64,000 nucleotides of DNA. Origin: Candidatus Zixiibacteriota bacterium (GTDB lineage: Bacteria > Electryoneota > B3-LCP). Where the stretch lies: assembly GCA_003599535.1 (NCBI GenBank), contig QZKQ01000131.1, positions 22,612-86,611 of the forward strand, read 5' to 3'. The position numbers and the translations under genes were made by a program. Of the stretch, positions 2,230-45,237 are shown in pieces (positions within the stretch are counted from its first letter, which is position 1; every line of letters begins with the position of its first letter). Below the pieces are notes generated by a model. It searched no databases, was not told where the DNA came from, and worked only from the letters and a program-made list of their open reading frames with translations.

Positions 2230-2730
2230 TTAACCACTCGCGCCGCCGGGCAAAGGTTTCGCCGACCGGGCGGAAAGTGCCGACAACCGCCGGGGATCGC
2301 GGCCGGTGAAGCGCAGCCGCCGCAGGTCTTCGCCGCCGGGATCGAAGGCGAATTCCACCCGGAAGGTCCAGTCATCGTAGTAGGAGGCGATCATGTCGGC
2401 CCACTCCACGATCACCAGGCCGGACCCCGTGCCGACATATTCGTCGAACCCCGTGGTGGCGATTTCCCGGGGGTCGCGCAGGCGGAAGCAGTCGAAATGG
2501 TACACCGGCATCCGGGCGCGGTAGTGGTGCACGATGGTGAAGGTGGGACTGGTCACGGTCCCCCGGCAGCCCATTCCGGCGCACAGGCCGCGCACGAACA
2601 CGGTCTTGCCGGTTCCCAGCTCGCCGCTCAGTCCCACGGTATCCCCGGCGCGCAACAGCGCCGCGAATTGCTCCCCCAGGTGAAAGGTATCGTCCGGCCC
2701 ACGGGTCAACAGTTCAATGGCGGCCGGCAT
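2230..2730 (-). CDS. tsaE: tRNA threonylcarbamoyladenosine biosynthesis ATPase TsaE (YjeE)
   Basis: Walker A GELGTGKTVFVRG. 166 aa. Immediately upstream of tsaB. Confidence 0.85.
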   Translation of the reverse strand: MPAAIELLTRGPDDTFHLGEQFAALLRAGDTVGLSGELGTGKTVFVRGLCAGMGCRGTVTSPTFTIVHHYRARMPVYHFDCFRLRDPREIATTGFDEYVGTGSGLVIVEWADMIASYYDDWTFRVEFAFDPGGEDLRRLRFTGRDPRRLSALSARSAKPLPGGASG

Positions 2731-2731
2731 A

Positions 2732-4285
2732 TCACTTCGGTTCCATGGTGATTACGGGAAGGACCATCTCTTCCAGGGAGATGCCGCCATGCTGGAAGCT
2801 GTTGCGGTAGAGGTTGATGTATTTGTGAAAATTGGTCGGGTACACGAAGTAATAATCCTCCTTGGCGATGATATAATTGACGTTGAGGCCGCGCCGGGGC
2901 AGCTTGTACACTTCCGGGTCGCGGATGAACAGCGCGTGCTTGTCCTCGCACTTCAGGTTGCGGCCGTACTTGTAGCGCAGGTTGGTGGAGGCGTCCTTGT
3001 CGGAGATGACCTTGGAACCGCGCTGGCTGCGGATGGAGCCGTGGTCGCTGGTCAGTACCACCACCACGTCCTGGCTGGCGTAGGCCCGCAGGATGTTGAA
3101 CAGGGAAGAGTGCTCGAACCAGGAGCGGGTCACGGCGCGGTAGGAAGCCTCATTGCGCACCATCTCTTTAATCACGTCGGAATTGGCCCGGGCGTGGGCC
3201 AGGATGTCCACAAAGTTGAACACCATGGACACCAGCGGCTGGCTGTAATACGAGGCCACTTTGCGTTCCACGCTGTCTGCTTCTTCCGGATCCAGGATCT
3301 TGACGTATTTGCTGTCCGACTTCATCCCCACGCCCAGCCGCGCCAACTGCTGGTCCAGGAGCTGGTGTTCGAAGCGGTTTGAGGATGATTCATCGTCCTC
3401 GCTGCGCTTCCACAGGTCGGGGTAATGCTTCTCCAGCTCGATGGGAAACAACCCGCTGAACAGGGCGTTGCGAGAGTAGGGAGTGGAGGTGGGGAGGATG
3501 GAGTAGTAGTAATCCCGGCGGATGGTGAACAGGTCCAGTAGCAGCGGTTCCAGGGCCAGGTACTGGTCCAGGCGCAGGCAGTCAATGACCAGGAAGAGCA
3601 CCTTCCGGCCGGCCTTCAGGTGGGGCGCCACCTGCCACTTGACTATATCCACCGACAGGGGCGGCGGCTCCTGCCCCCGGATCCACTTCAGGTATTGGTC
3701 CTCGATGAACCGCCCGAATTCCAGGTTGCACTGGTTGCGCTGATCCTGCAAGACCTCGCCCAGTCCCAGTTCCGGGTAGCGGTCCAGCTCCATCTCCCAG
3801 CCCGACATCTTCAGGTGGACGTCTATCCAGTCCTGCCAGCGGGAGCCTCCGGCGATCAGGGAGGATATTTCGTTGAACTGCGACAGGTACTCCCGGGCCA
3901 GGCGGTCGCGGGAGATCTGGGAGGCTTCGGTCAACTTCTTCAGCACCAGCAGGATTTGGCTGGGGTTGACCGGCTTGGTCAGGAAGTCGTCTATCTGCCG
4001 GCCGATGGCCTCTTCCATGAGATGTTCTTCTTCATGCTTGGTGATCATCACCGTGGGCAGCCCCGGCCGCAGCGCCTTGATTTCCGCGAAGGTGGCGATC
4101 CCGTTCTTGCCGGCCATCTGCTCATCCAGGAGCACCACGTCGAAATTATCACGGGTGACGTGGGCGATGGCGTCATCGCCGTTGGTCACCGGAGTGACGT
4201 CGTAGCCGCGTTCCTGCAGGAACAGGACGTGAGGGCGCAGGAGATCAATTTCGTCATCGGCCCAGAGAACCCTTTTGCGATCCAT
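2732..4285 (-). CDS. porX: PorX-like response regulator: CheY-like receiver plus PglZ (alkaline-phosphatase-like) domain
   Basis: N-terminal receiver (LWADDEIDLL, VVLLDEQMAG, TKP). C-terminal PglZ domain (VVVLTSDHGS). 517 aa, the same architecture and length as the T9SS regulator PorX. Confidence 0.75.
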   Translation of the reverse strand: MDRKRVLWADDEIDLLRPHVLFLQERGYDVTPVTNGDDAIAHVTRDNFDVVLLDEQMAGKNGIATFAEIKALRPGLPTVMITKHEEEHLMEEAIGRQIDDFLTKPVNPSQILLVLKKLTEASQISRDRLAREYLSQFNEISSLIAGGSRWQDWIDVHLKMSGWEMELDRYPELGLGEVLQDQRNQCNLEFGRFIEDQYLKWIRGQEPPPLSVDIVKWQVAPHLKAGRKVLFLVIDCLRLDQYLALEPLLLDLFTIRRDYYYSILPTSTPYSRNALFSGLFPIELEKHYPDLWKRSEDDESSSNRFEHQLLDQQLARLGVGMKSDSKYVKILDPEEADSVERKVASYYSQPLVSMVFNFVDILAHARANSDVIKEMVRNEASYRAVTRSWFEHSSLFNILRAYASQDVVVVLTSDHGSIRSQRGSKVISDKDASTNLRYKYGRNLKCEDKHALFIRDPEVYKLPRRGLNVNYIIAKEDYYFVYPTNFHKYINLYRNSFQHGGISLEEMVLPVITMEPK

Positions 4286-4337
4286 AATGTCTCCCAGTTA
4301 CATCATAAACACCCGTTATCCGGGGAAGGCGGAGCGG

Positions 4338-5222
4338 TCAGGTCAACACCTCCTGAACGAGATCGGCCCGGGCGGAATCCAGGCCCTGCTCCAGGGCCAG
4401 TTCCAGGGCTTTCAGACTGAGCATGCGGTAGAGGGCTTCACCGGCGGGGCTGGACCGGTTCAAGGCTTCCCGGTGCCGCTGTACGGTGGCCGCGTCGCCG
4501 CGGGCGACGGGGCCGGTCAGGGCGGCGGTCTCGCCCAGCGTCAGCACGTTTTCCAGGCTGCGGCGCATCAGCGGCGCCAGCATGGCGGAGCCCTGCTCCC
4601 GGGCTACTCCCGCCTCGGTCAACAGTTCCAGCGCCAGGCGCAGCAGGACCGGGAGGAAGTTGGAGGCGAACACCGCGGCGGCATGGTATGCCGCCTTTCC
4701 TTCGCTGCGAATTTCCACCGGAATGCCGCCCAGGCGCTCCACCACCGCACGCAGGGAAGCCACCAGCGCGGAGTCCCCTTCCAGCGCGAAATACGTGCCC
4801 TGCAAGGCCGGGCTGGGGCCCCGGGCGGGGAAGGTCTGCAAGGGGTGCAGAGAACCGACCGCCACACCCGCCTGCGCCAGGCGCTGGAATTCCGAGCCCG
4901 GCAGTGCCCCGGAAGTGTGCAGGCAGGCAGCCAGCGCCAGCTCGGGAAGGCGGCGGGCTACGGCCCGGTCCACCGCGGCGATCTGCCCGTCGGGCACAGC
5001 CACGATCAGCAGATCGGTATCGCGGCGCAGCAGGGCGGGGTCCGACCCGGCCCGGCCGGCGGACACCTCCCGGGCCAGCTCACGGGCGGAGGGCGCCTGG
5101 CGGTCCAGGATCGCCGTCAGGGTGTACCCAGCCTGAGACAGCGACCGCGCCAGCGCCCGGCCCACCGCGCCGGCGCCCAGGAGGGCCAGGCGGGGGGGCT
5201 GCCCGGAAGAGAGATCATGCAT
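4338..5222 (-). CDS. Rossmann-fold NAD(P)-binding protein, DUF2520 family (predicted oxidoreductase)
   Basis: GxGxxG motif ALLGAGAVGRALARSL right after the ATG at 5222. The 49 codons further upstream in the ORF-track frame are probably not translated. Confidence 0.6.
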   Translation of the reverse strand: MHDLSSGQPPRLALLGAGAVGRALARSLSQAGYTLTAILDRQAPSARELAREVSAGRAGSDPALLRRDTDLLIVAVPDGQIAAVDRAVARRLPELALAACLHTSGALPGSEFQRLAQAGVAVGSLHPLQTFPARGPSPALQGTYFALEGDSALVASLRAVVERLGGIPVEIRSEGKAAYHAAAVFASNFLPVLLRLALELLTEAGVAREQGSAMLAPLMRRSLENVLTLGETAALTGPVARGDAATVQRHREALNRSSPAGEALYRMLSLKALELALEQGLDSARADLVQEVLT

Positions 5223-5256
5223 GACTTGAATTGCAGCAGTATTTACACGTTTCGTT

Positions 5257-5333
5257 CGGAGGGCCACGCTTCGTCGTGGCCTTTCTTTTACGAAGGTCGA
5301 ATTTTTATGGCCACAACGGAGCGTGGCCCTCCG
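5257..5333. repeat. 77-bp imperfect palindrome (two 25-bp arms, 23/25 complementary, 27-nt AT-rich spacer) in the leader of the DUF2520-porX-tsaE-tsaB-cdaA operon
   Basis: cggagggccacgcttcgtcgtggcc (5257-5281) and ggccacaacggagcgtggccctccg (5309-5333) are reverse complements with two mismatches. Confidence 0.7.
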
Positions 5334-5381
5334 AAGCGGCGACATTTCCGGGAGTACGCGGGAGTTCACTTGCAGATTAAA

Positions 5382-5414
5382 GAAGCCGGTTCACGTGGGG
5401 CGAACCGGCTTCCC
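5382..5414 (-). terminator. Rho-independent terminator of the S8 protease gene
   Basis: Minus-strand hairpin GAAGCCGGUUC-GCCCCACGU-GAACCGGCUUC followed by UUUAAUCUG. Confidence 0.55.
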
Positions 5415-5443
5415 GTCAAGATGGTAGTGGAAGGCGCTGCCGG

Positions 5444-8095
5444 TTACTTCAGCAGGACCATTTTCCGGGTCAACTGCATGGCGCCCGTTTCCAGGCGGTA
5501 GAGGTAGACGCCGCTGGCCAGATCCGGCGCCTGGAAGGCGGCGGTGTGGCGTCCGGCCGGCATCTGACCGTTGACCAGGGTGGCGACCAGGCGGCCGCTC
5601 AAGTCGAACACCGACAGTTTCACCCGTTCCGCCTTGGGCAGGGAGAAGGTGATTTCCGTGCCCGGATTGAAGGGGTTGGGGTAGTTCTGGTCCAGGGCGT
5701 AGTCGGCCGGCAGAACCGGTTCGCTGACGGTCGGCGCGGCCAGCACCAGGCTGTCGAACCAGTCAAAGATGTTCTGCAGCACGATACGGCGGTTGGTGTA
5801 GCCGGGCAGACCGGACGAGGCTTCGAAGTTGAAGGCAAGGTACACCAGGCCGCCGGTCTGGTGATCCCAGCGCAACCCGGCGCCCGGACCGGAAGTGCTC
5901 CCGTAGTTGTAGATCAGTACCGCGTCGTTAACGGCATTGATGGTGGCGGAAGATCCCGCGTTGCCCGCACCGCCGGCGCCGGCCAGCATCATGCTGGTGC
6001 CGCTGGAGATGGGGTCGCCATCCACGCCGAATACCATGGGCGCAGGCGTCAGGCCGGCCGCCGAAGCGTGCAGGACATCCCCATATGCGGCAGAGCTGTC
6101 CAACTGCTCGTCAATGTTCTGTCCGGTCAGGAACAGGCAGCCGGTGCTGTTGATATAGCTCCCGATGGCGGCCAGTTCATTCTCCGTCAACGGGTTCTGT
6201 TCCGTGGAGGTGTGCCAGATGACCTTGGAGTACGGCTGGATGATCTCAAAGTCCACTTCACCCTGGGTGCTGACGTTCCAGTAGTCGTAGACGATGGCGA
6301 GGGAATCCAGATCCATCTCGTACCAGACCTGCCAGTTCACGCCGCCGTCGTCATCCACCAGCAGCACGTCAGGGACGCCGACCATCTGCAGCAGGTTCTG
6401 GGTGATCGGGAACATCAGGGTGGTCTCGTTCATGCTCAGAGTGAAGGTCGCCTCGAAGGGCGGCGCACCGGCGTCCACGCTGAAGGTAAAGGGACTGGTA
6501 GCGTTGTTCTGGCTGCTCTGAGTGCCGATGCTGCCCAGGTTGCAGGTCCCCTGGCTGAAGGAGACGTTGGTGTTGTTGCAGGTCAGGTCCACGACCACGC
6601 CGTTGGCCGCCACCGTGCGGGAGCTGTTGTTCACGGTAATCAGCAGCTTCCAGGTTTCGCCCGGATCAATGCGGGTGTCGCCGTTGCCGGTGACCTCCTG
6701 GAAGGTCGTCTCCGTGAAGCTCAGGGTGGGGAAGAGAGCGGTGATGGCCGCCCCGGCGTCAATGCGGCCGTGCCCCAGGAAGCCGGACCAGGCGTATCCG
6801 GTCACGTCAATGGGCACGCAGGTGTCGTATATCTGCTGGATCACCTGGGTGTTGGTCCAAGCCGGCCGGGCCGCCCAGATCTGCGCCGCCAGGCTGGCGG
6901 CGATGGGGGTGGACATGGAAGTACCGGAAAACGAGGTATAGGAGTACGGCACGGTGCTCAGGATGCCTTCCCCCGGGGCGGCGACGTCCACCGTCGGGGC
7001 GTAGGTGGAGAAGCCGGCCTTGTGGTCGCCGGAATTGGAAGCTGCAACGCTGACCACGTTATCGTAGCCGGAGGGGTAACGGATCTCATACTGGCCGGTG
7101 TTGCCAGCGGAAGCGAAAAGCGCCGCGCCCTGGCTGTAGGCATTGTTGATGATGGACTGTTCGTAGCCGGACGAACCCGTCCCTCCGAAGGACATGCTGA
7201 TGATGTGAGCACCTTCGCCCGCCGCGTAAGCCACGCCGGAAGTCCAGGAGTAGACGAATTCCCCGTCGCCGCAGCGGCTGGTCAGTATTTTGGTCTTGCA
7301 AGCCAGGCTGGCGATGCCCATGCCGTTGTTGGTCACGCCGCTGGCCAGCCCGGAGCAGTGCGTGCCGTGGCCGCCCTGCGGTTGGTTATCCTGGACGTCG
7401 TTGTTCCCCTGCCAGAAGTTCCAACCCCAGAAGTCGTCCACCAGGCTGTTACCGTCGTTGTCCTGGCCGTCCCAATCGCTGGGATCAATGATGCCGTTGC
7501 CGTTCAGGTCCTCTTCCGGGTTGATCCAGAGGTTGTTCCGGAGATCCTGGTGCGTGGTGTCAATGCCGGAGTCCACCACCCCGATGATAACGGTGTCGCT
7601 GCCCTGGCAGTAGTCGAAGGCCAGGTTGGCATGCATTGTGTTCATGGCCCACTGGCTGAAGTACATGGGGTCATTGGGCACCCAGTCCGCCCGGCGGATC
7701 ATGTACGGTTCGGCGGTGATGACGTTGGGATCCAGGGCATAGGCCTGGGCCACTTCGTGCAGGTCGGTATCGAAGGGGAAGTGAAGGATGTAATATCGTG
7801 AGATGTCCCGTATCGCCGGATCCTGGGGCTTCTCGGCAAAGGGAATCAGTTTTTCAATGTGATGCACGTTGAACTGATGCGCCAGCGCGTCCAGGCCGAC
7901 GTCGCCGGTCAGCATCAGGCCCGAATTCTGGGTCAAACGGATCGGTCCCAGCGCTTCGCGGAATTCCACCACGATGCGGCCCTTCCATTCGAGATTTTCG
8001 GTCATGGGTGGGGGCGCGTTGTTGGCCATGACCATCCCGGTGATCACAAGCACGGCGACTGCTGCAGCCACGGTTAACCAACCGCGATACTTCAT
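5444..8095 (-). CDS. Secreted subtilisin-like serine protease (S8) with extra beta-rich domains and a T9SS C-terminal sorting domain
   Basis: Signal peptide. Catalytic triad motifs VVDSGID (Asp), HGTHCSG (His), GTSMSTP (Ser). C-terminus YPNPFNPGTEITF ... GVYLYRLETGAMQLTRKMVLLK is a typical T9SS C-terminal domain. Confidence 0.85.
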   Translation of the reverse strand: MKYRGWLTVAAAVAVLVITGMVMANNAPPPMTENLEWKGRIVVEFREALGPIRLTQNSGLMLTGDVGLDALAHQFNVHHIEKLIPFAEKPQDPAIRDISRYYILHFPFDTDLHEVAQAYALDPNVITAEPYMIRRADWVPNDPMYFSQWAMNTMHANLAFDYCQGSDTVIIGVVDSGIDTTHQDLRNNLWINPEEDLNGNGIIDPSDWDGQDNDGNSLVDDFWGWNFWQGNNDVQDNQPQGGHGTHCSGLASGVTNNGMGIASLACKTKILTSRCGDGEFVYSWTSGVAYAAGEGAHIISMSFGGTGSSGYEQSIINNAYSQGAALFASAGNTGQYEIRYPSGYDNVVSVAASNSGDHKAGFSTYAPTVDVAAPGEGILSTVPYSYTSFSGTSMSTPIAASLAAQIWAARPAWTNTQVIQQIYDTCVPIDVTGYAWSGFLGHGRIDAGAAITALFPTLSFTETTFQEVTGNGDTRIDPGETWKLLITVNNSSRTVAANGVVVDLTCNNTNVSFSQGTCNLGSIGTQSSQNNATSPFTFSVDAGAPPFEATFTLSMNETTLMFPITQNLLQMVGVPDVLLVDDDGGVNWQVWYEMDLDSLAIVYDYWNVSTQGEVDFEIIQPYSKVIWHTSTEQNPLTENELAAIGSYINSTGCLFLTGQNIDEQLDSSAAYGDVLHASAAGLTPAPMVFGVDGDPISSGTSMMLAGAGGAGNAGSSATINAVNDAVLIYNYGSTSGPGAGLRWDHQTGGLVYLAFNFEASSGLPGYTNRRIVLQNIFDWFDSLVLAAPTVSEPVLPADYALDQNYPNPFNPGTEITFSLPKAERVKLSVFDLSGRLVATLVNGQMPAGRHTAAFQAPDLASGVYLYRLETGAMQLTRKMVLLK

Positions 8096-36788: not shown

Positions 36789-37157
36789 CGGTAAGCTTTA
36801 AGCTGTAAGCTGTAAGCGAACAGGGCGGCCCGGTGGCCGCCCGCTTTTATGTTACGCGTAGGGGTGGGGTTTAGCTTGTAGGGCGGACTAAGCGGCGGAG
36901 CACCGGATCCAACTTTGTTCGATGGAATTGATCCGCCGCGCAGTCCGCCGTGTGTTTCCCCCCTCACCCAGCCCCTCCACTCGTGTCATTGCGAGCGAAG
37001 CGAAGCAATCTTCGCCCCTCGCCCACCCCTAAAGGAGTAGGCTACGGCTAAAATGCAAAAGCCCCGTAAACGGGGCTCATTAGATGCGAGATGCGAGAAA
37101 GGGGCGGCCACACCGGGCCGCCCCTACTAACGACTAACGACCAACGACTAACGACTA
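36789..37157. repeat. Structured intergenic element between convergent fcl and the SBBP gene: 7-mer tandem repeats at both ends, nested inverted repeats, several terminator hairpins
   Basis: (GTAAGCT)x4 at 36792-36819. Terminator GGGCGGCCCGGUGGCCGCCC+UUUUAU at ~36822-36850. Inverted repeat taggggtggg (36859-36868) / cccaccccta (37023-37032). Long hairpin 36882-36949. Minus-strand terminators at 37056-37076 and 37100-37124. (TAACGAC)x4 at 37127-37154. Confidence 0.6.
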
Positions 37158-38456
37158 TTTCAGCAGCACGATCTTCTGCACCTGCGACACCTCCCCCGCC
37201 GTCAGTCTCACCAAATACACCCCCGACGGCAGCCCCGTCCCATCGAAACTCACCTCGTGCGATCCCGCCGGGTACCATGCCTCCCCCTGTAGGGGCGGGC
37301 CGATGTGCCCGCCCCCGGGGCGACCACATAGGATCGCCCCTACATTCCGTCCTCCCGTGTCGAACACCTCCAGCCTCACATACCCCGCCGCCGGCAGGCC
37401 GAAGCGGAGGGTGGTCACCGGATTAAACGGATTGGGGTAAACGGACAGGGTGAACTCCTCGGCCACGACGAAGCGCCACGCAGTGGCCCTTGGTGGTGGC
37501 CCTCCAGGCTCGCCGGGGAAGGGGTCGCCCCAATTTTCATTGTTATAGACGAAGGCGCCGCTCCCGTCCGTGGCGGACTTGGTGAAGGTGAAGTAGCTGG
37601 AATCCCAGATGCTGCCGGATGCGTAGATCCCGGCATAGCCCACGTAGGTGTATTCCCCGGGAGGATTGGTTCCGGCCACGTTCTGGGCGCGGCCAAAGGT
37701 GAGGTCGGCGCCAACAGGCACATTGGTCAGGCGGAAGGGCCCCAGAATCCCTATCCAGTTCCCGTCGGGGGAATACCAGCCGCTCCACACCTGGAATTCT
37801 TGAGTCAGGCCGGAGAGGTTCTGAATCCGGACTTGGTAATCGAAGCTGCCGCCGGTGGCGGGGATGACGAGGGGCGGGTTCACGGGCGTCAGGGTGGTCT
37901 CCAGGGGTTGCCCCCCAGCCTCGGTCTTGATCAGGTAAACATCCCAACTACCTGCGCCGCAGGACCACGTCTCTCCAGCGATGACGTACCCACCGTCCGC
38001 CGTCTGTTGCACGCTGCGACCAAAATCACCACTGCTCCCGCCGAATGCCTGCTGCCAAAGCGGGTTGCCGGAGGCGTCGGTCTTGACCAGGTAAACATTA
38101 TAACTGCCAGCGCCGTAGGGCCATGTCTCTCCGGCGATGACATACCCGCCGTCCGTGGTCTGCTGCACGCTGTAACCATAATCATAATAGCTCCCGCCGA
38201 AGGTGCGCTGCCAGACCGGGTTTCCCTCCGCGTCGGTCTTGACCAGGTAAACGTCATGGTAGCCTAAGCCGAAGGACCAGGTGTATCCGGCGATGATGTA
38301 CCCGCCGTCCGTAGTCTGCTCCACGCTGGAACCATAATCATAACTGCTCCCGCCGAAGGTGCGCGTCCAGAGCGTATCGGGCGGCTGGGCGCCGGCCCCC
38401 GCAGCCAGCCCCAGCCCTCCCACCGCCAGCAGACTGATCCATAATGATTTCTTCAC
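37155..38456 (-). CDS. Secreted protein with three SBBP-type beta-propeller repeats and a T9SS C-terminal domain
   Basis: Signal peptide. Three ~48-aa repeats of FGGSSYDYGxSVQQTxDGGYxIAGETW ... DVYLVKTD. C-terminus YPNPFNPVTTLRF ... GVYLVRLTAGEVSQVQKIVLLK. Confidence 0.75.
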   Translation of the reverse strand: MKKSLWISLLAVGGLGLAAGAGAQPPDTLWTRTFGGSSYDYGSSVEQTTDGGYIIAGYTWSFGLGYHDVYLVKTDAEGNPVWQRTFGGSYYDYGYSVQQTTDGGYVIAGETWPYGAGSYNVYLVKTDASGNPLWQQAFGGSSGDFGRSVQQTADGGYVIAGETWSCGAGSWDVYLIKTEAGGQPLETTLTPVNPPLVIPATGGSFDYQVRIQNLSGLTQEFQVWSGWYSPDGNWIGILGPFRLTNVPVGADLTFGRAQNVAGTNPPGEYTYVGYAGIYASGSIWDSSYFTFTKSATDGSGAFVYNNENWGDPFPGEPGGPPPRATAWRFVVAEEFTLSVYPNPFNPVTTLRFGLPAAGYVRLEVFDTGGRNVGAILCGRPGGGHIGPPLQGEAWYPAGSHEVSFDGTGLPSGVYLVRLTAGEVSQVQKIVLLK

Positions 38457-39174: not shown

Positions 39175-39565
39175 GGATCACCGGCCACCCTGCTTACCCT
39201 CGAATAAATTCGGGGGCTCTCCTGATAAAACAAAGTCTCTAAAGAGACTGTCTGGTACACTGACCGGGCAGTCTCTTCAGAGACTTCATCGCGTAAAAGA
39301 GCGCACCCGATCGTCGGCTGATGGATATGGGCGCGGGTGATTTCCCCATTTCTGGAAGGGCACGGACGGCAGAAAGATCGGCGGGAGAGATGTTCGCGTC
39401 AGGTCACGCCGCTGCAGTACCGAAGCAAGCATCCGTCCACCCCTGCCGAAGGGATCTCACTCCTGCGGCTAAGACCTGACGCAACGCGCATGGAGCACCC
39501 GCTTCAGCGGGTAGCATGATAGTAGCCCAGGAATTCATTCCTGGGAAAAAAGGGTCCAGAATCCC

Positions 39566-40936
39566 ATGTTCATCGACTCCCACGCCCACCTGGATTTCCC
39601 TGAACTGAAGCCCCACCTGGACGCGGTCCTGGCCAACGCCCGCATGGCCGGCGTCACCCACATCCTGACGGTGGGCATTGACGGCGCCACCAACCAGGCG
39701 GCGTACGATATCGCCCGGGCGCACGAAAGCGTGTACGCCTCGGCGGGGTGGCACCCCCACGACGTCTCCAGGGCCGACGCCGGGCTGGAACGCCACCTGG
39801 AAGATTTCCTGTCGCGCCCCAAGGTCGTGGCCCTGGGCGAAGCGGGGCTGGACTACTACCGCGACCTCTCCCCGCGGGACACCCAGCGGGAAGTCTTCGC
39901 CCGCATTGTCCGGCTGGCCCGGCGGCTGGACCGGCCGCTGATCGTCCACTGCCGCGACGCCTTCCCCGACACGTTTGAGATCCTGCATCGCGAGGGCGAA
40001 GGGCAGGTCAAGGGGGTGTTCCACTGCTTTTCCGGCGGGCCGGACGAGCTGCGCAAAGCGCTGCACCTGGGCTTCTTCGTCTCGTTTACCGGCAACATCA
40101 CCTACAAGAACACGGCCCTCCTCCCCACCCTGCAGGCCGCTCCAGTGGACCGCCTGCTGCTGGAAACCGACTGCCCCTTCATGACCCCGCATCCGCACCG
40201 GGGCAAACGCAACGAACCGGCCTACGTGCCCCTGGTGGCGGCCAAAATTGCTGAAGTCAAGGGCCTGTCGGTGGAGGACGTGGCCCGCATTACCCGCTAC
40301 AACACCTGGCGGCTGTTCGGTATCGGCGAAGCCCCCGAGCAGCGGTTCGTCTATCCCATCCGCAATTCGCTCTACGTGGCCCTGACCTCCCGCTGCACCA
40401 ACGACTGCCGTTTCTGCCCCCGGCACGTGCATCCGGTGGTCAAGGGGCATTATATCGGCATGACGGAAGCCGAAGAGCCATCCCCCGACCAGGTCATCGC
40501 CGCGCTGTCGGACCTGGGGAATTACGACGAAGTGGTCTTCTGCGGGTTCGGCGAACCGACCATCCGCCTGGAAGAGTTGAAGCAGATTGCCCGGTGGGTA
40601 AAAGGACAGGGCAGGAAGGTGCGGCTGGACACCAACGGCCAGGCCAACCTGATCCACGGCCGGGACATCGTCCCCGAACTGGCGGGGTTGGTAGACGCCG
40701 TCTCCATCAGCTTGAACGAGCACCGCGCCGACCTGTACCAGGCCCTGGTGCACAGCGAGTTTGGGGAGGCCGCCTTTCAGGCGCTGCTGGATTTCGCCCG
40801 GCGGTGCGTGGAATTGCTGCCCGAAGTGACGCTGTCTGTGGTGTCGTATCCGGGAGTGGACCTGGAGGCGGCGCGGAAGGTGGCCGAAGGCACCGGGGCG
40901 AAGTTCCGGGTGCGGGAATACAACGAGGTTGGGTAA
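39566..40936 (+). CDS. Fusion protein: TatD-family metal-dependent hydrolase (N) plus TatD-associated radical SAM-like domain (C)
   Basis: MFIDSHAHLDF, GLDYYRD, ETDCPF (TatD). Then SRCTNDCRFCPRH (CxxxCxxC) and a ~190-aa partial radical-SAM fold. Confidence 0.7.
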   Translation: MFIDSHAHLDFPELKPHLDAVLANARMAGVTHILTVGIDGATNQAAYDIARAHESVYASAGWHPHDVSRADAGLERHLEDFLSRPKVVALGEAGLDYYRDLSPRDTQREVFARIVRLARRLDRPLIVHCRDAFPDTFEILHREGEGQVKGVFHCFSGGPDELRKALHLGFFVSFTGNITYKNTALLPTLQAAPVDRLLLETDCPFMTPHPHRGKRNEPAYVPLVAAKIAEVKGLSVEDVARITRYNTWRLFGIGEAPEQRFVYPIRNSLYVALTSRCTNDCRFCPRHVHPVVKGHYIGMTEAEEPSPDQVIAALSDLGNYDEVVFCGFGEPTIRLEELKQIARWVKGQGRKVRLDTNGQANLIHGRDIVPELAGLVDAVSISLNEHRADLYQALVHSEFGEAAFQALLDFARRCVELLPEVTLSVVSYPGVDLEAARKVAEGTGAKFRVREYNEVG

Positions 40937-40945
40937 AAAAAGAGG

Positions 40946-41152
40946 CGCCGGGGGTGGACCCGGCGCTTCTGCAGGGGTAGTGCTCTTCAGTACACGCCAT
41001 CAATCGTCAATATCGAGATCCTTTCTGTGGGAGGTGACGTTTTCCTGTCCTCTCTCTTATCGGAACTTCACAGTGAAACTTTAGCTTTCCTGCAAAATAT
41101 TTTTATCTCACCCGAAAAGCAAAGGGCGCGAGAATTCGCGCCCTTTGTTTGT
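40946..41152. terminator. Pair of bidirectional intrinsic terminators between the convergent TatD fusion and the cytochrome operon
   Basis: GCGCCGGGGGUGGACCCGGCGC (40952-40973), followed by UUCUGC on the plus strand and by U7 on the minus strand (plus-strand aaaaaaa at 40945-40951). AGGGCGCGAGAAUUCGCGCCCU (41120-41141) is flanked by U-rich tracts on both strands. Confidence 0.6.
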
Positions 41153-41168
41153 TTATGGGAATCAGAAG

Positions 41169-43217
41169 CTATTTCCGGCTGGCGGTCTGCTTTTCCGGGG
41201 CGGGTTGCAGCCGGTCTTCGACTTCTTCCAGCTTCTTCTGTAGCGTGGAGTAAATTTCTGTCGCGGCATCGTAGTTGTGCAGCGGTCCGGCTTCTTTCAG
41301 GATCTTGGCGCGGCGCTCGATCTCATCCAGGGCTTTGGCCTGATCCACAGTTTTGCGGCCGTTCTGCTGAGCGGATTCCAGCGTGGCACGCACTGATTCC
41401 AACTTCACCGCCAGGCGTTCCTGGAGTTGAGTCAATTCCTGGGACCACTGTGTCAACATGGCGGCGTAATCTCGGCTGTGACAGTCGGCGCATCGGTCGC
41501 CCACACCCTCCAGAGTCAGCGGCTTGGTGTGATCGTGGCAACCGTCGCAGGTAACCTCGGCCGCAGCCATGACATCGGGTCTCTCTTCCAGGCCCAGTTC
41601 ATGGCTGGCGCCGCGGTAGAGATCATCCTGCCGCCAGTGACAGGTGACGCAGGCGATAGGATAATCACCATGGTGGCATTCCTTACAGGATTGCCGCTCC
41701 ACGACTCCCAGGCGATGATTATCCGGTTCGTGGCAACTGGTACAGGGCTGCTCCAGATCCTGCGTGTGCATGGTATGAGGGAAAGCCATGCGTTCATAGG
41801 TCACTTCATCCGGCCGGGGAATGCGGGAATGGCACAGGGATTGGCAGTAACCGTCGGATTGCCCCAGGAGCTGGCCCAAGTCCATCTGTTCGCTTAAACC
41901 CAGGGCCGGGCGGGCGGCTTTCAGACGATCTCCGGATCGTTTCAGCAGGTCAATGGCGTAGAAAGGGTTATGCGTCAGCCGGCCGTCTTTTACGAAATCG
42001 TAATTATACCGTGCCTCTTCCACCGCCACGCGGGCTGTGGAAACGTCCCGGCCGCGTGCTTCCGCAGCGCGCAGGGCGCTTTCCGTTTGCCGCAGGTGCG
42101 GCTCCAGGGAGCTCAGCATCACCGGCGCCAGACGAATCCAGTCATCCAGCATCAGGTCATAGCCTGGACCATGGCACTTGAGACAGGATTCCCGCCGCGT
42201 CTTCATGGCCAGTGCTCCGAACTCCACCTCCCCAATGGCTTCACCCTTGCTGTGGCACCCGTCGCAGGAAACCTGCGCCAGAAACATCTTGGCCGGCTCA
42301 TCCGGAATGCCCTGGCCGCCGGCGCCGAAATATAACTGCTTTTCCGGCGTGTGCAGTTTGACGTGGCACACTTCACAGCGCACTTCCAGAGAACTGATCA
42401 ATCCGAACTTCCCGTGTTCGATCTGTCCATGGCAGCGGAAGCAATCGATATGCTCGCCGTTGACATGGACTTCGTGCACCAGTGGGAAGTCGCCAAAACT
42501 CTCCTGGCGCGATACGTGACAGGTGAAGCAGGCCTCCTGAGGCACGGCGGCGTCACCTTTCAGCACGTCCAGGTGGCATTCACTGCACTGCAAGCCAATA
42601 TCGACATACGACTGGTGGCTGAACTGGAAACCCTGGTGATCGACGGATTCCGTGGGATTGCCGTGACAATTCTGGCAGCCGCTCTGGGACTGACCCGGCT
42701 GGGTGCCTTTGAAATGGCACAGGAAGCAGGAACTGTGGTCGACCTGCAGGTAGGATCCCGGCACACGATGGTTATGGCAGGTGGTGCAATGCAGCTCCAC
42801 ACCTCGCATCGGCTTGGAAAGGTGAACGCTGTGATCGAACGAAATATCCCGTTCGAAGTGCGCTTCGGTGTCCAGAGTCTGGTTTTCGTGGCAGTTCAGA
42901 CAGGATTCGTCCTTTACCTCCGTGGTGGGCCGCCAATCGCGGGAAGTGACTACGTAATCCAGGGTCCAGTTGCTGAGCAGATGCCGCCGGTCCGGGTGGC
43001 AGGCCACGCAGGCCACGTCGCGGTGGTTGGAGTGCGCCCAAAGATTGTAGTAAGGACGCATGGTGTGGCAACTTATGCAGGTATCCGGGTCGCTGCTGAT
43101 GAAGTAATAGCCGATATTCAGGAGCAGGAACAGTCCCAGCAACGAGACGATGATCAGTAGAATTTGGCGGTAGTAGGTGGCCAACCCTCGGATGATCGCC
43201 CGCAGAAAATCCCTCAT
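41169..43217 (-). CDS. Membrane-anchored multiheme c-type cytochrome, about 17-18 haem sites: NapC/NirT/CymA-like N-terminus fused to a long polyheme extension
   Basis: N-terminal TM, then CISCH...CVACH (NapC-type). 17 CxxCH plus one CxxxCH motif in total (CLNCH, CTTCH, CFLCH, CQNCH, CSECH, CFTCH, CFRCH, CEVCH, CDGCH, CLKCH, CQSLCH, CTSCH, CKECH, CVTCH, CDGCH, CADCH). Confidence 0.8.
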
Positions 43218-44173
43218 GAGCGCCCTCCCCGGGAGGCCTTCCGCTGGGATTGTCCGGAAGATTCCTGGTTTTTCCGTTGCATAATCTCCTCGTACTCCAG
43301 TGGATGCTCATCCAGCATCTCTTCCTTGGAGATCTTGCCGGTGATCCAGGTTTTAGACATGGGGAATTTGTGGGGGTTCAGGTGCACGTTGTAGAAGTGC
43401 CAAATGATGATGGCCAGAGTGGCCAGCAGGGCTTCATCGGAATGGGCTTCCTTGGCGATATCCAGGAAGAACTTGGGCAGGAACTGCATCGTGACGCTCT
43501 CAAACCAGAGCAGCGAGCCGGAGCCGATCATGATGATCATGCCCCAATATACCGCCCAGTAGTCGAACTTTTCGATGTAACTGAAGCGACCGAAGCGGGG
43601 CTTTTGATCGCTCTTGCCCAGGTAGTATTTCAGTTGCTGCACGTAATCCAGGGCGTCTTGAAGTTTCGGCAGGAGCAGAAGAAAATCGCGTCGGCCTGCC
43701 TTGGACAGGATCGTGTAAACTACGTGGAACACGCCTACAAACGCCAGCGCCGTGGCTGCGATGCGGTGGATGATAGCGGAGCTTTCAATGCCACCCAGCA
43801 GGTTAATGACGAAGTGGGAGAGGCCGGCTTCATGGAATTTCAGCGGCAGGCCGGTGATGATCAGGGCGATGATCGAGGTCAGCATGGTGACATGCTGTAA
43901 TCTCAGGTTCAGCGACAGGCGGACAAACTCTTCCGGCTCCTCTTTCGGCATTTTCACCGGCGGGGCAGGCTGGGGCACGGGGGCGGGACGTACCTGGGCC
44001 GCCAGGCGTTCGGCTTGCTGGTCGAGGTTCACGTCCAGCCCGGAAATCATCTCATCCAGGCGCGCGTCACTCAGTTCGCTGTCGGGAACCCCGCGAGCCT
44101 GCATCTTTTCGCGCAGAGCCCGGCGCAGGGCTTCCCGCAACACATGATCGGAGTTGGAATTGCTGGCAGTCAT
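43214..44173 (-). CDS. Di-heme b-type cytochrome membrane subunit (HyaC/FdnI-like, PF01292-type)
   Basis: About 4-5 TM with conserved His in helices ([28 protein letters not shown]). Start taken at MTASN (44173). The upstream ORF extension overlaps the preceding gene. Confidence 0.65.
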
Positions 44174-44193
44174 GCAGTGAAGGTTATTCCAGG

Positions 44194-45237
44194 TTAATGG
44201 TTGCCTTTTCGATGGCCCAGGAGGCGCTTGGACAGGTCCAGGATAATATTCCCGATCAACCCCACTAAGGTCAGGATGGTCAGCCACTTGAAAAAGCTGG
44301 CGACGTAGTAGATGATGCCCGCCTCGGGGCTCTTGGCGTTGACGTGGATCTTGCCTTTGGCCCAATTGGCGTTGGCCTGGGGGTGACACTTGCCGCAGGT
44401 TTTGGGGATGTTGGCCGGGTGCACCAACGATTCCGGGTCGGTGGGCGGCAGGATGTCATGAGCCCCATGGCAGGAGGCGCAGTTGGCGGCCGTGGTCGAA
44501 CCGAACTGGCTGGCGATGCCGTGAAAACTTTCCGTGTAAGATTCGACCTGTTCGGTGGTCAGTCCCGCGGGCCCCACGATGGTCTCGGCGGCATGGCAGT
44601 GCCCGCAGGTCTCGGGAATATTGGCGGAGAAAACCTGCGAGGAAGGAGCCAGAGGCGACGCGATGGTGTGCTCGCCATGACAATCCGTACAGGTAGGAGT
44701 GCTGTCATGCCCTTCCTTTAACAGCTTTCCGTGGATGGAGTGGGTGTAATGCGAGTAAATCTCCAGGTGACAGCGACCGCATAGATCCGGGATGTTCTGC
44801 CGGTGCAAGGGAGATTCGGCCGACTGCGGCGGATGGATATTATGGGCTCCGTGGCAGTTCTGACACAGGGGCGCCTTACGGTTGCCGGATCGAGCGGCTT
44901 GCCCGTGGACGCTCTCACGGTATTGGTCGTAAACGGGCAGTTCCGGGGCGCCGGCCAGGTTGCCGATGTAGTGACAGGAGGTGCAGTCTACCCGTTGCAA
45001 CCCGGGCTGGTGGGGGATTTCCACCACGTCGCGATGGCAGTCAGTGCATTCGTGGCGGGGATGGACGGATTGAGCCAGAGAATCCGGAGGCACATGCAGT
45101 GACACCCGCACGGAATCGGCTCCCACCACGTGAAAATTAGGCTTGGCATGGCAAATTTCGCATTTTTGCACCGGAGCGGCAAGCGCGACCGTCAGGCCAA
45201 TCGGGATCAGGGCAAAGCAGAGCAACCATCGTTTCAT
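44194..45237 (-). CDS. Periplasmic nine-haem c-type cytochrome with C-terminal TM anchor
   Basis: Signal peptide. 9 CxxCH (CEICH, CTDCH, CTSCH, CQNCH, CGRCH, CTDCH, CGHCH, CASCH, CGKCH). Repeated NIPxxCGxCH units. Hydrophobic C-terminus. Confidence 0.8.

Follow-up and report, generated by a model that had tools for sequence, protein, structure and literature searches.

A TatD-family protein fused to a radical SAM domain of the TIGR04038 family, and what the fusion may couple

Does the reading frame at positions 39566..40936 of this DNA really join a TatD hydrolase to a radical SAM enzyme in a single polypeptide and, if so, on what might the two halves act together? The window (the whole stretch of 64,000 nucleotides that was analysed) carries at this place, on the + strand, a complete coding sequence of 456 codons plus stop that opens with ATG, closes with TAA and has zero internal stops on translation. 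An earlier note, made from the letters of the sequence, had read its product as a TatD hydrolase at the N-terminus followed by a TatD-associated radical SAM domain with the motif CTNDCRFC, and both assignments were borne out by profile scans. The NCBIfam model TIGR00010 (YchF/TatD) scored 259.7 bits against a cutoff of 206 (residues 2-252, model positions 1-252 of 253), and TIGR04038 (tatD_link_rSAM) aligned over its full model with 236.3 bits against a cutoff of 129.7 (residues 261-453, model positions 2-192 of 192). The Pfam scan placed PF01026 on the protein with an E-value of 1.3e-80 (270.9 bits; cutoff 27) and PF04055 with an E-value of 4.6e-15. As profile matches, the TatD and radical SAM assignments are both far beyond chance. 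The TatD domain, of group II (HxH) and YcfH/YabD type, occupies 39566..40321 (+; residues 1-252; TIGR00010, PF01026), and the radical SAM domain, a minimal single-cluster core of the TIGR04038 family, occupies 40346..40924 (+; residues 261-453). Between them lies a short linker at 40322..40345 (+; residues 253-260), which is in frame and aligns with homologs of 60-71% identity. In the full-length search the product was 100% identical to GenBank RJP73670.1 (P0121), which is encoded on a 108-kb contig and titled 'MAG: YchF/TatD family DNA exonuclease [Candidatus Zixiibacteriota bacterium]'. We regard it as virtually certain that the reading frame is a genuine fused member of a known family, and we have good confidence in the account given here of the identity, architecture and coupling of its two parts; this second judgement bears mainly on these and leaves the exact chemistry outside.

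Judged by its residues, the N-terminal half is probably a catalytically intact group II TatD metallo-nuclease of the YcfH/YabD type. The HxH motif defines group II of the TatD family (PMC10085689), and here it reads H6-A-H8 (39581..39589, +). The segment E200-T-D202-C-P-F (ETDCPF) contains, in the invariant columns E200-T-D202 (40163..40171, +), the metal-ligand Asp of the domain. The protein has every TatD ligand (H6, H8, E92, H128, H153 and D202); each of them is invariant in an alignment of 68 fused homologs and aligns with S. aureus TatD (2GZX). The closest solved relatives of this half are 2GZX (E 1e-58), 6L25 (deposited under the title 'Deoxyribonuclease YcfH'), T. maritima TM0667 (1J6O) and E. 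coli YcfH (1YIX), with E. coli TatD proper clearly more distant than these YcfH/YabD-type structures. E. coli YcfH degrades ssDNA as a 3'-5' exonuclease and cuts dsDNA as an AP endonuclease, and a triple TatD-family mutant of E. coli is sensitive to H2O2 (PMC10085689). According to the introduction of the same paper, RNA is also degraded by E. coli TatD. The family members with a demonstrated metal-dependent 3'-5' exonuclease or AP-endonuclease activity are limited to YcfH, TatD and YjjV of E. coli and the human proteins TATDN1 and TATDN3 (PMC10085689). The window protein has the group II HxH motif and all metal ligands in common with the YcfH/YabD-type nucleases, but it carries a C-terminal radical SAM domain of ~200 aa that is missing from the enzymes characterised in E. 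coli and S. aureus. It also has the TatD fold in common with QatD, the TatD-family nuclease of the Qat anti-phage system. Identity with QatD was nonetheless rejected, as the model score was 95.1 bits against a cutoff of 230 and the genomic context is a housekeeping one without a defence island.

The C-terminal half has the features by which the radical SAM superfamily is recognised: a CX3CX2C motif whose last Cys directly follows an aromatic residue, a GGE-type motif and a partial (beta/alpha) barrel fold. The cluster-binding motif C277-x3-C281-x-F283-C284 (CTNDCRFC; 40394..40417, +) shows 100% conservation across 107 domains of the family. A 'GGE'-type SAM-binding motif follows a Cys that is invariant in the family and reads C326-G-F-G-E-P331 (40541..40558, +); like the TatD ligands, the residues of both motifs are invariant in the 68 fused homologs. 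Across the same 107 TIGR04038-family domains the CX3CX2C motif, F283, GxGEP and S382-L-N384 are 99-100% conserved. The earlier note had held that a C-terminal part lacking SAM-binding motifs would undo its reading; the motifs are in place and, being intact, lead us to predict that the domain binds a [4Fe-4S] cluster and SAM. The domain ends ~170 residues past the cluster motif, and no conserved extra Cys triad, SPASM/twitch or other extension was found in the 107 domains. Apart from the cluster-binding trio, C326 is the one Cys that all members conserve; the Cys columns 395 (80%) and 436 (76%) are common in the family and absent from the window protein. An auxiliary Fe-S cluster of the SPASM/twitch kind was considered and rejected, as columns 326, 395 and 436 fail to co-vary and the set is incomplete in the window protein. 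Nine basic positions are conserved in at least 85% of the 107 domains, which fits phosphate binding. The conserved basic residues of the window protein include R286, R334, K346, R353, R366, R448 and R450. The domain is otherwise acidic (median pI ~5.8 for the 107 domains) and contains no recognisable nucleic-acid-binding module, and neither observation favours direct nucleic-acid binding by the radical SAM domain alone. AlphaFold2 modelled this domain by itself with a pLDDT of 94.9 and the full-length fusion with a pLDDT of 94.8 and a pTM of 0.88; in a two-domain chain a pTM of this size indicates a defined relative orientation of the modelled halves.

Comparison with named families places the radical SAM half near several others. 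By sequence, the closest sister family is TIGR04100 ('rSAM_pair_X'), whose model is matched over full length with 177-181 bits; the window protein scored 177.4 bits against a curated cutoff of 262 and is therefore not a TIGR04100 member. Behind TIGR04038 and TIGR04100, the named HMM families that follow are TIGR04317 (a tungsten-cofactor maturase) and MoaA, each with a low score. The best PDB sequence-profile match is RlmN (E 4e-5, 26 bits). Foldseek top matches include the RlmN-like methyltransferase 6fz6 and TYW1, and viperin, BlsE, QueE and MoaA rank high in fold searches. The nearest solved fold is that of PFL-AE (PDB 3C8F), at an identity of only 20%. PFL-AE is a protein-directed activase whose partner is a glycyl-radical enzyme, whereas the partner within the fusion is a nuclease. 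Membership among the glycyl-radical activating enzymes (PflA/NrdG) was rejected on an NrdG2 score of 21.5 bits against a cutoff of 131, the likeness being in fold only, and no glycyl-radical enzyme is conserved beside the fused gene at 74 loci.

The fused form recurs widely. In the full-length search, of which the best 120 clusters (90% identity) were listed, nearly all of these clusters are full-length proteins of 456-465 aa with both Pfam domains, giving more than 100 full-length fused clusters. The carriers include isolates whose genomes are complete or nearly so, namely Geoalkalibacter halelectricus, G. ferrihydriticus, Malonomonas rubra DSM 5091 and Pelobacter seleniigenes. When each GTDB species was represented by one genome, scanning gave at least 598 loci encoding a relative. 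The best 80 of these, which were examined, come from Desulfuromonadota, Syntrophorhabdaceae, Acidobacteriota, Planctomycetota (including an anammox genus), Verrucomicrobiota, Nitrospirota, Nitrospinota, Bacteroidota/Ignavibacteriota, Omnitrophota, Myxococcota, Zixibacteria and several candidate phyla. By tblastn, all 80 gave one uninterrupted HSP that covered at least 95% of the 456-aa query and contained no stop codon. The spacing between the invariant residues L250 and Y263 is 12-14 residues in 68/68 aligned fusions, and the junction itself is conserved as LFGIGEAP-x3-Y-x-IRNSLY. Each of the 68 fused homologs scored with TIGR00010 as well as TIGR04038, and the 40 stand-alone relatives tested all scored with TIGR04038. 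A stop codon or frameshift between the domains in related genomes, which the earlier note had named as the sign of an artefact, was encountered at the junction in none of the 80 loci, and the single-polypeptide fusion that it proposed stands as real. Although split, overlapping pairs of tatD and radical SAM genes occur in other lineages and broken versions of the fused gene occur in low-quality assemblies, the chance that an assembly, sequencing or gene-calling artefact merged two adjacent genes is next to nil, given a continuous ORF, uninterrupted copies at 80 independent species loci, fusions in complete isolate genomes, a linker conserved in both length and sequence and a reading frame of 456-459 aa in relatives of 60-71% identity.

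One class of shorter homologs bears separate mention. Proteins of 296 aa that start just past the TatD HCFSG motif recur on long contigs and brought selenocysteine/TGA recoding into consideration. Six-frame translation showed a deletion and a frameshift inside tatD at one such locus (L001), and indel errors at another (L002), where metG is fragmented too; at both, the gene call resumes at a conserved internal Met. Selenocysteine or other recoding was accordingly rejected for the 296-aa class.

The earlier note had also assumed that the radical SAM protein is normally encoded by a separate neighbouring gene, and this premise held only in part. An exhaustive HMMER search with the radical SAM half against 1.84 billion cluster representatives (50% identity) returned 222 clusters at E <= 1e-30. 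Among the best 150 of these 222, full-length fusions account for 82 and stand-alone-like proteins, in which the domain starts within the first 30 residues, for 42; the other 26 carry a partial TatD remnant and are mostly truncated fusions. When 107 radical SAM domains were placed on a neighbour-joining tree, the stand-alone forms fell into essentially one clade, the named members of which are Firmicutes (Clostridiales, Syntrophothermus, Thermosediminibacterales and Tepidanaerobacteraceae). A few 'stand-alone' sequences are placed among the fusions, and these start with TatD C-terminal residues or otherwise look truncated. From the cluster counts and the tree, the separate-gene premise is right mainly for the Firmicutes-type clade and wrong outside it, where the fused form is the commonest state. 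When the genes are split they may still lie together, with the gene order of the fused loci retained: one pair (L084) has the order metG-tatD-rSAM with a 1-nt overlap, and another (L086) has a 38-nt gap from tatD to the radical SAM gene, followed by yabE-ksgA. Beside two further stand-alone members (L083 and L085), tatD is absent. Six relatives of odd length (P0303, P0311, P0372, P0274, P0280 and P0272) all proved to be TatD plus radical SAM proteins with insertions. By predicted domain content, TatD is the sole recurrent fusion partner of the radical SAM domain among the relatives tested. A singleton, P0041, includes part of a signal-peptidase II and is probably a chimera created by gene calling.

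The genomic setting of the fused gene is in many lineages that of an ordinary tatD. The classical ycfH/yabD slot has the order tmk-holB-ricT-metG-tatD. When neighbours were clustered for 74 fused loci, metG was found directly upstream on the same strand at 30, and holB (DNA polymerase III delta'), PSP1/ricT and tmk (thymidylate kinase) were found nearby at 23, 18 and 13 loci, respectively; rsmA/ksgA or prmA lies downstream in a minority of the 74. The slot after metG and near holB/tmk that YcfH/YabD-type genes hold is thus also held by the fused gene in most phyla. This position indicates that the gene fused to radical SAM is the core housekeeping YcfH/YabD TatD and not an accessory paralog. 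The window's own lineage differs from the rest of the TIGR04038 family in this respect, its fused gene lying outside the usual metG/holB neighbourhood: a tblastn search of the 64-kb window found none of metG, holB, PSP1, tmk, rsmA and prmA. Upstream of the fusion gene, after a 391-nt gap, is instead an EIIA-2 (PtsN-like) gene, and downstream is a convergent multihaem cytochrome/cytochrome b operon. The same arrangement of EIIA-2, fusion and cytochrome genes is kept around a 69%-identical relative (L087).

The earlier note took the fusion as support for a functional coupling of the two activities. This is a fair 'Rosetta stone' argument, though not a new one, as it is the basis of the TIGR04038 family name. 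Coupling is further supported by the 12-14-residue linker, by the pTM of the full-length model and by split pairs that overlap by 1 nt or stand 38 nt apart. Taken together, the bare core devoid of add-ons, the rigid tether and the restriction to TatD as recurrent partner lead us to infer that both sites act on the same molecule. In the mechanism that we propose, the C-terminal domain would bind one [4Fe-4S] cluster through C277, C281 and C284, and reductive cleavage of SAM by this cluster would yield a 5'-deoxyadenosyl radical that abstracts a hydrogen atom from the substrate. As the shared substrate we would expect a nucleic acid strand, a free nucleotide being less probable. The radical step would convert or mark a position such as a lesion, a blocked end or a modified residue, and the two-metal site of TatD would then cut or trim there, using the 3'-5' exonuclease and AP-endonuclease activities that are known for E. 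coli YcfH. That the radical chemistry is performed on a nucleic acid or nucleotide substrate has, in our judgement, a somewhat better than even chance of being right. The narrower version, in which the module processes DNA lesions specifically, is possible but doubtful. The proposal in full, namely that TIGR04038 comprises nucleic-acid-directed radical SAM enzymes that act on a damaged or blocked nucleotide of DNA or RNA and pass the product to the TatD site, is put forward tentatively and is rather unlikely to hold as it stands. Counting against a nucleic-acid mechanism are PFL-AE as the nearest fold, TIGR04317 and MoaA as the nearest named HMM families, the members L083 and L085 that lack an adjoining tatD, and the placement of the window gene outside the metG/holB string. 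If the proposal were true, the universal YcfH/YabD nuclease would have been extended, specifically in anaerobes, into a 'radical excision' system for repair or processing, and the housekeeping TatD would gain a defined physiological substrate. To our knowledge, spore photoproduct lyase is the one earlier kind of DNA repair by a radical SAM enzyme, which would make this the second.

The genomic setting also lends itself to a module directed at RNA, in which the radical SAM domain would modify or process rRNA or tRNA in the manner of RlmN, Cfr or TYW1 and TatD would serve as an RNA 3'-exonuclease or an aminoacyl-tRNA-type hydrolase. Where the gene is embedded in the string metG-tatD-(yabE)-(rnmV)-ksgA, its setting is that of the translation apparatus; the frequent metG directly upstream and the occasional rsmA/ksgA or prmA downstream point the same way, and co-evolution analysis has linked yabD to metG, ksgA and rsmG (PMC3814617). 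The degradation of RNA by E. coli TatD (PMC10085689), together with RlmN as the best PDB profile match and 6fz6 and TYW1 among the top Foldseek matches, is also consistent with such a role. However, the RlmN match is weak and covers the generic core only, the catalytic Cys pair of RlmN is not evident, and the acidic domain comes without a TRAM, PUA or other RNA-binding module. Moreover, the DNA replication genes holB and tmk are equally conserved neighbours. On balance an RNA-directed role in this form appears unlikely, though it deserves to be kept in mind.

A pathway of small molecules would account for a different part of the evidence. Here the radical SAM domain would transform a free nucleotide or phosphorylated metabolite, as viperin, MoaA and QueE do, and the amidohydrolase-fold TatD would hydrolyse the product or a precursor. 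TIGR04317 and MoaA as nearest named HMM families after TIGR04038 and TIGR04100, and the high ranks of viperin, BlsE, QueE and MoaA in fold searches, are in keeping with this, and the conserved basic residues of an otherwise acidic domain would suit a phosphate-binding pocket. One stand-alone member is moreover found amid metabolic genes (RuBisCO-like, URO-D and an FAD oxidoreductase). Set against this, zero biosynthetic genes are conserved around the fusion at the 74 loci, and the TatD half is an ordinary YcfH/YabD ortholog in its ordinary slot, of a type that is a demonstrated nuclease and that occurs in aerobes without such a partner. We consider this reading quite improbable.

The closeness of the PFL-AE fold raises a further alternative, a protein-directed activase or maturase like PFL-AE or EpeE, the target of which could be the attached TatD domain itself. 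A permanent tether to one protein partner would suit self-modification, and a minimal open core, as in the structure of PFL-AE, is typical of enzymes that act on macromolecules. The low NrdG2 score and a TatD domain without a glycyl-radical-type motif speak against it. Among the forms examined, no TatD residue is conserved solely in those associated with radical SAM (C203 varies), and TatD orthologs function in aerobes without the partner. An activase is accordingly a very unlikely explanation, and action on a nucleic acid or nucleotide, as set out above, is the reading that we prefer.

Taken by itself, the locus is of minor importance: its protein has been deposited, the family is catalogued together with its TatD link, and most members are fused. 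TIGR04038 is entered in NCBIfam as 'TatD family nuclease-associated radical SAM protein' and typed as a subfamily_domain. A preprint names the InterPro entry IPR023821 'TatD-associated rSAM family' (bioRxiv 10.1101/2024.11.19.624229). The window protein, with its full-model match and its association with TatD by fusion, shows no substantive difference from TIGR04038/IPR023821; it is a typical representative of a family already catalogued, and its widespread fused architecture is likewise known. Searches of the full-text literature returned no functional study of the TIGR04038 family and no substrate for it, only the InterPro label in one preprint. Of broader interest is that anaerobes of a dozen phyla or more have a radical SAM domain joined to their core YcfH/YabD nuclease, mostly in the metG/holB string. 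Solving its radical chemistry could show the cellular role of the ubiquitous housekeeping TatD nucleases.

Two smaller features flank the gene in the window. A regulatory RNA was considered for the 391-nt upstream gap, where an Acido-Lenti-1 match falls on a palindrome; it was rejected because the score is sub-threshold (26.3 against 37 bits) and the palindrome is not conserved in the syntenic relative L087. Just past the stop codon, at 40945..40966, the sequence contains a GC-rich hairpin of 8 G-C pairs with an A-run on one side and a T-run on the other, which is probably a bidirectional terminator between the convergent genes.

Homologs of 296 aa that appear to combine a TatD remnant with the radical SAM domain recur in public databases. 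We rejected this class as a distinct architecture, as the loci behind it in two relatives (L001, positions 3628-4891; L002, positions 2511-3881) are broken fusion loci. In both, the 296-aa form originated from a deletion and frameshift, or from indel errors, within tatD, and the gene call resumes at an internal Met that is a conserved residue. These loci are thus either pseudogenes or assembly errors. The JGI name "TatD DNase family protein" is given even to family fragments that have only the radical SAM part, and the NCBI name for the full fusion is only "YchF/TatD family DNA exonuclease". The radical SAM half is therefore concealed by routine annotation.

The stand-alone family member P0078 (49% identical), encoded at the locus of another relative (L083, positions 2568-7902), has no adjoining tatD there. 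It is flanked on one side by genes for a RuBisCO-like protein and a URO-D-family protein, and on the other by those for an FAD oxidoreductase, a rhodanese, and a MauE-like protein. This metabolic context differs from the metG-tatD string in which the family is usually found.

Two cysteine columns of the radical SAM domain are common in the family without being universal. Among the 107 aligned domains, fused and stand-alone, Cys is present at residue 395 in 80% and at residue 436 in 76%. Both positions are non-Cys in the window protein (window about 40748-40750 and 40871-40873), as they are in several other family members among those inspected. Because the two columns do not co-vary, a second Fe-S cluster is unlikely.

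A 449-aa antisense ORF on the minus strand (window 39404-40753) spans nearly the whole fusion gene. We interpret it as a shadow ORF, a type known from GC-rich DNA, because the domain matches (E 1e-77 and 1e-70) sit in the plus-strand frame. The intergenic gap 5' of the fusion gene is unusually long (391 nt, window 39175-39565) and contains a perfect palindrome, CCCAGGAATTCATTCCTGGG (window 39526-39545), 20 nt 5' of the ATG. Its match to the Rfam family Acido-Lenti-1 is sub-threshold (26.3 vs 37 bits), and it is not kept in the syntenic, 69%-identical relative (L087).

Directly past the stop codon of the fusion gene lies a GC-rich hairpin (window 40945-40966; 8 G-C pairs, 6-nt loop), preceded by an A-run and with a T-run on the other strand. 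The hairpin probably serves both the fusion gene and a convergent, minus-strand operon (window 41169-45237) as a bidirectional intrinsic terminator. The products of this operon are a 682-aa multihaem c-type cytochrome with an MtrC/MtrF-like domain match, a membrane subunit of the cytochrome b561 type, and another multihaem cytochrome; L087 has the same convergent layout. Also on the minus strand, a gene at window 37155-38456 encodes a 433-aa secreted protein with repeated, beta-propeller-like "GGSxxDxGxSVxQTxDGGY" units; its C-terminus carries a T9SS sorting domain (Por_Secre_tail).
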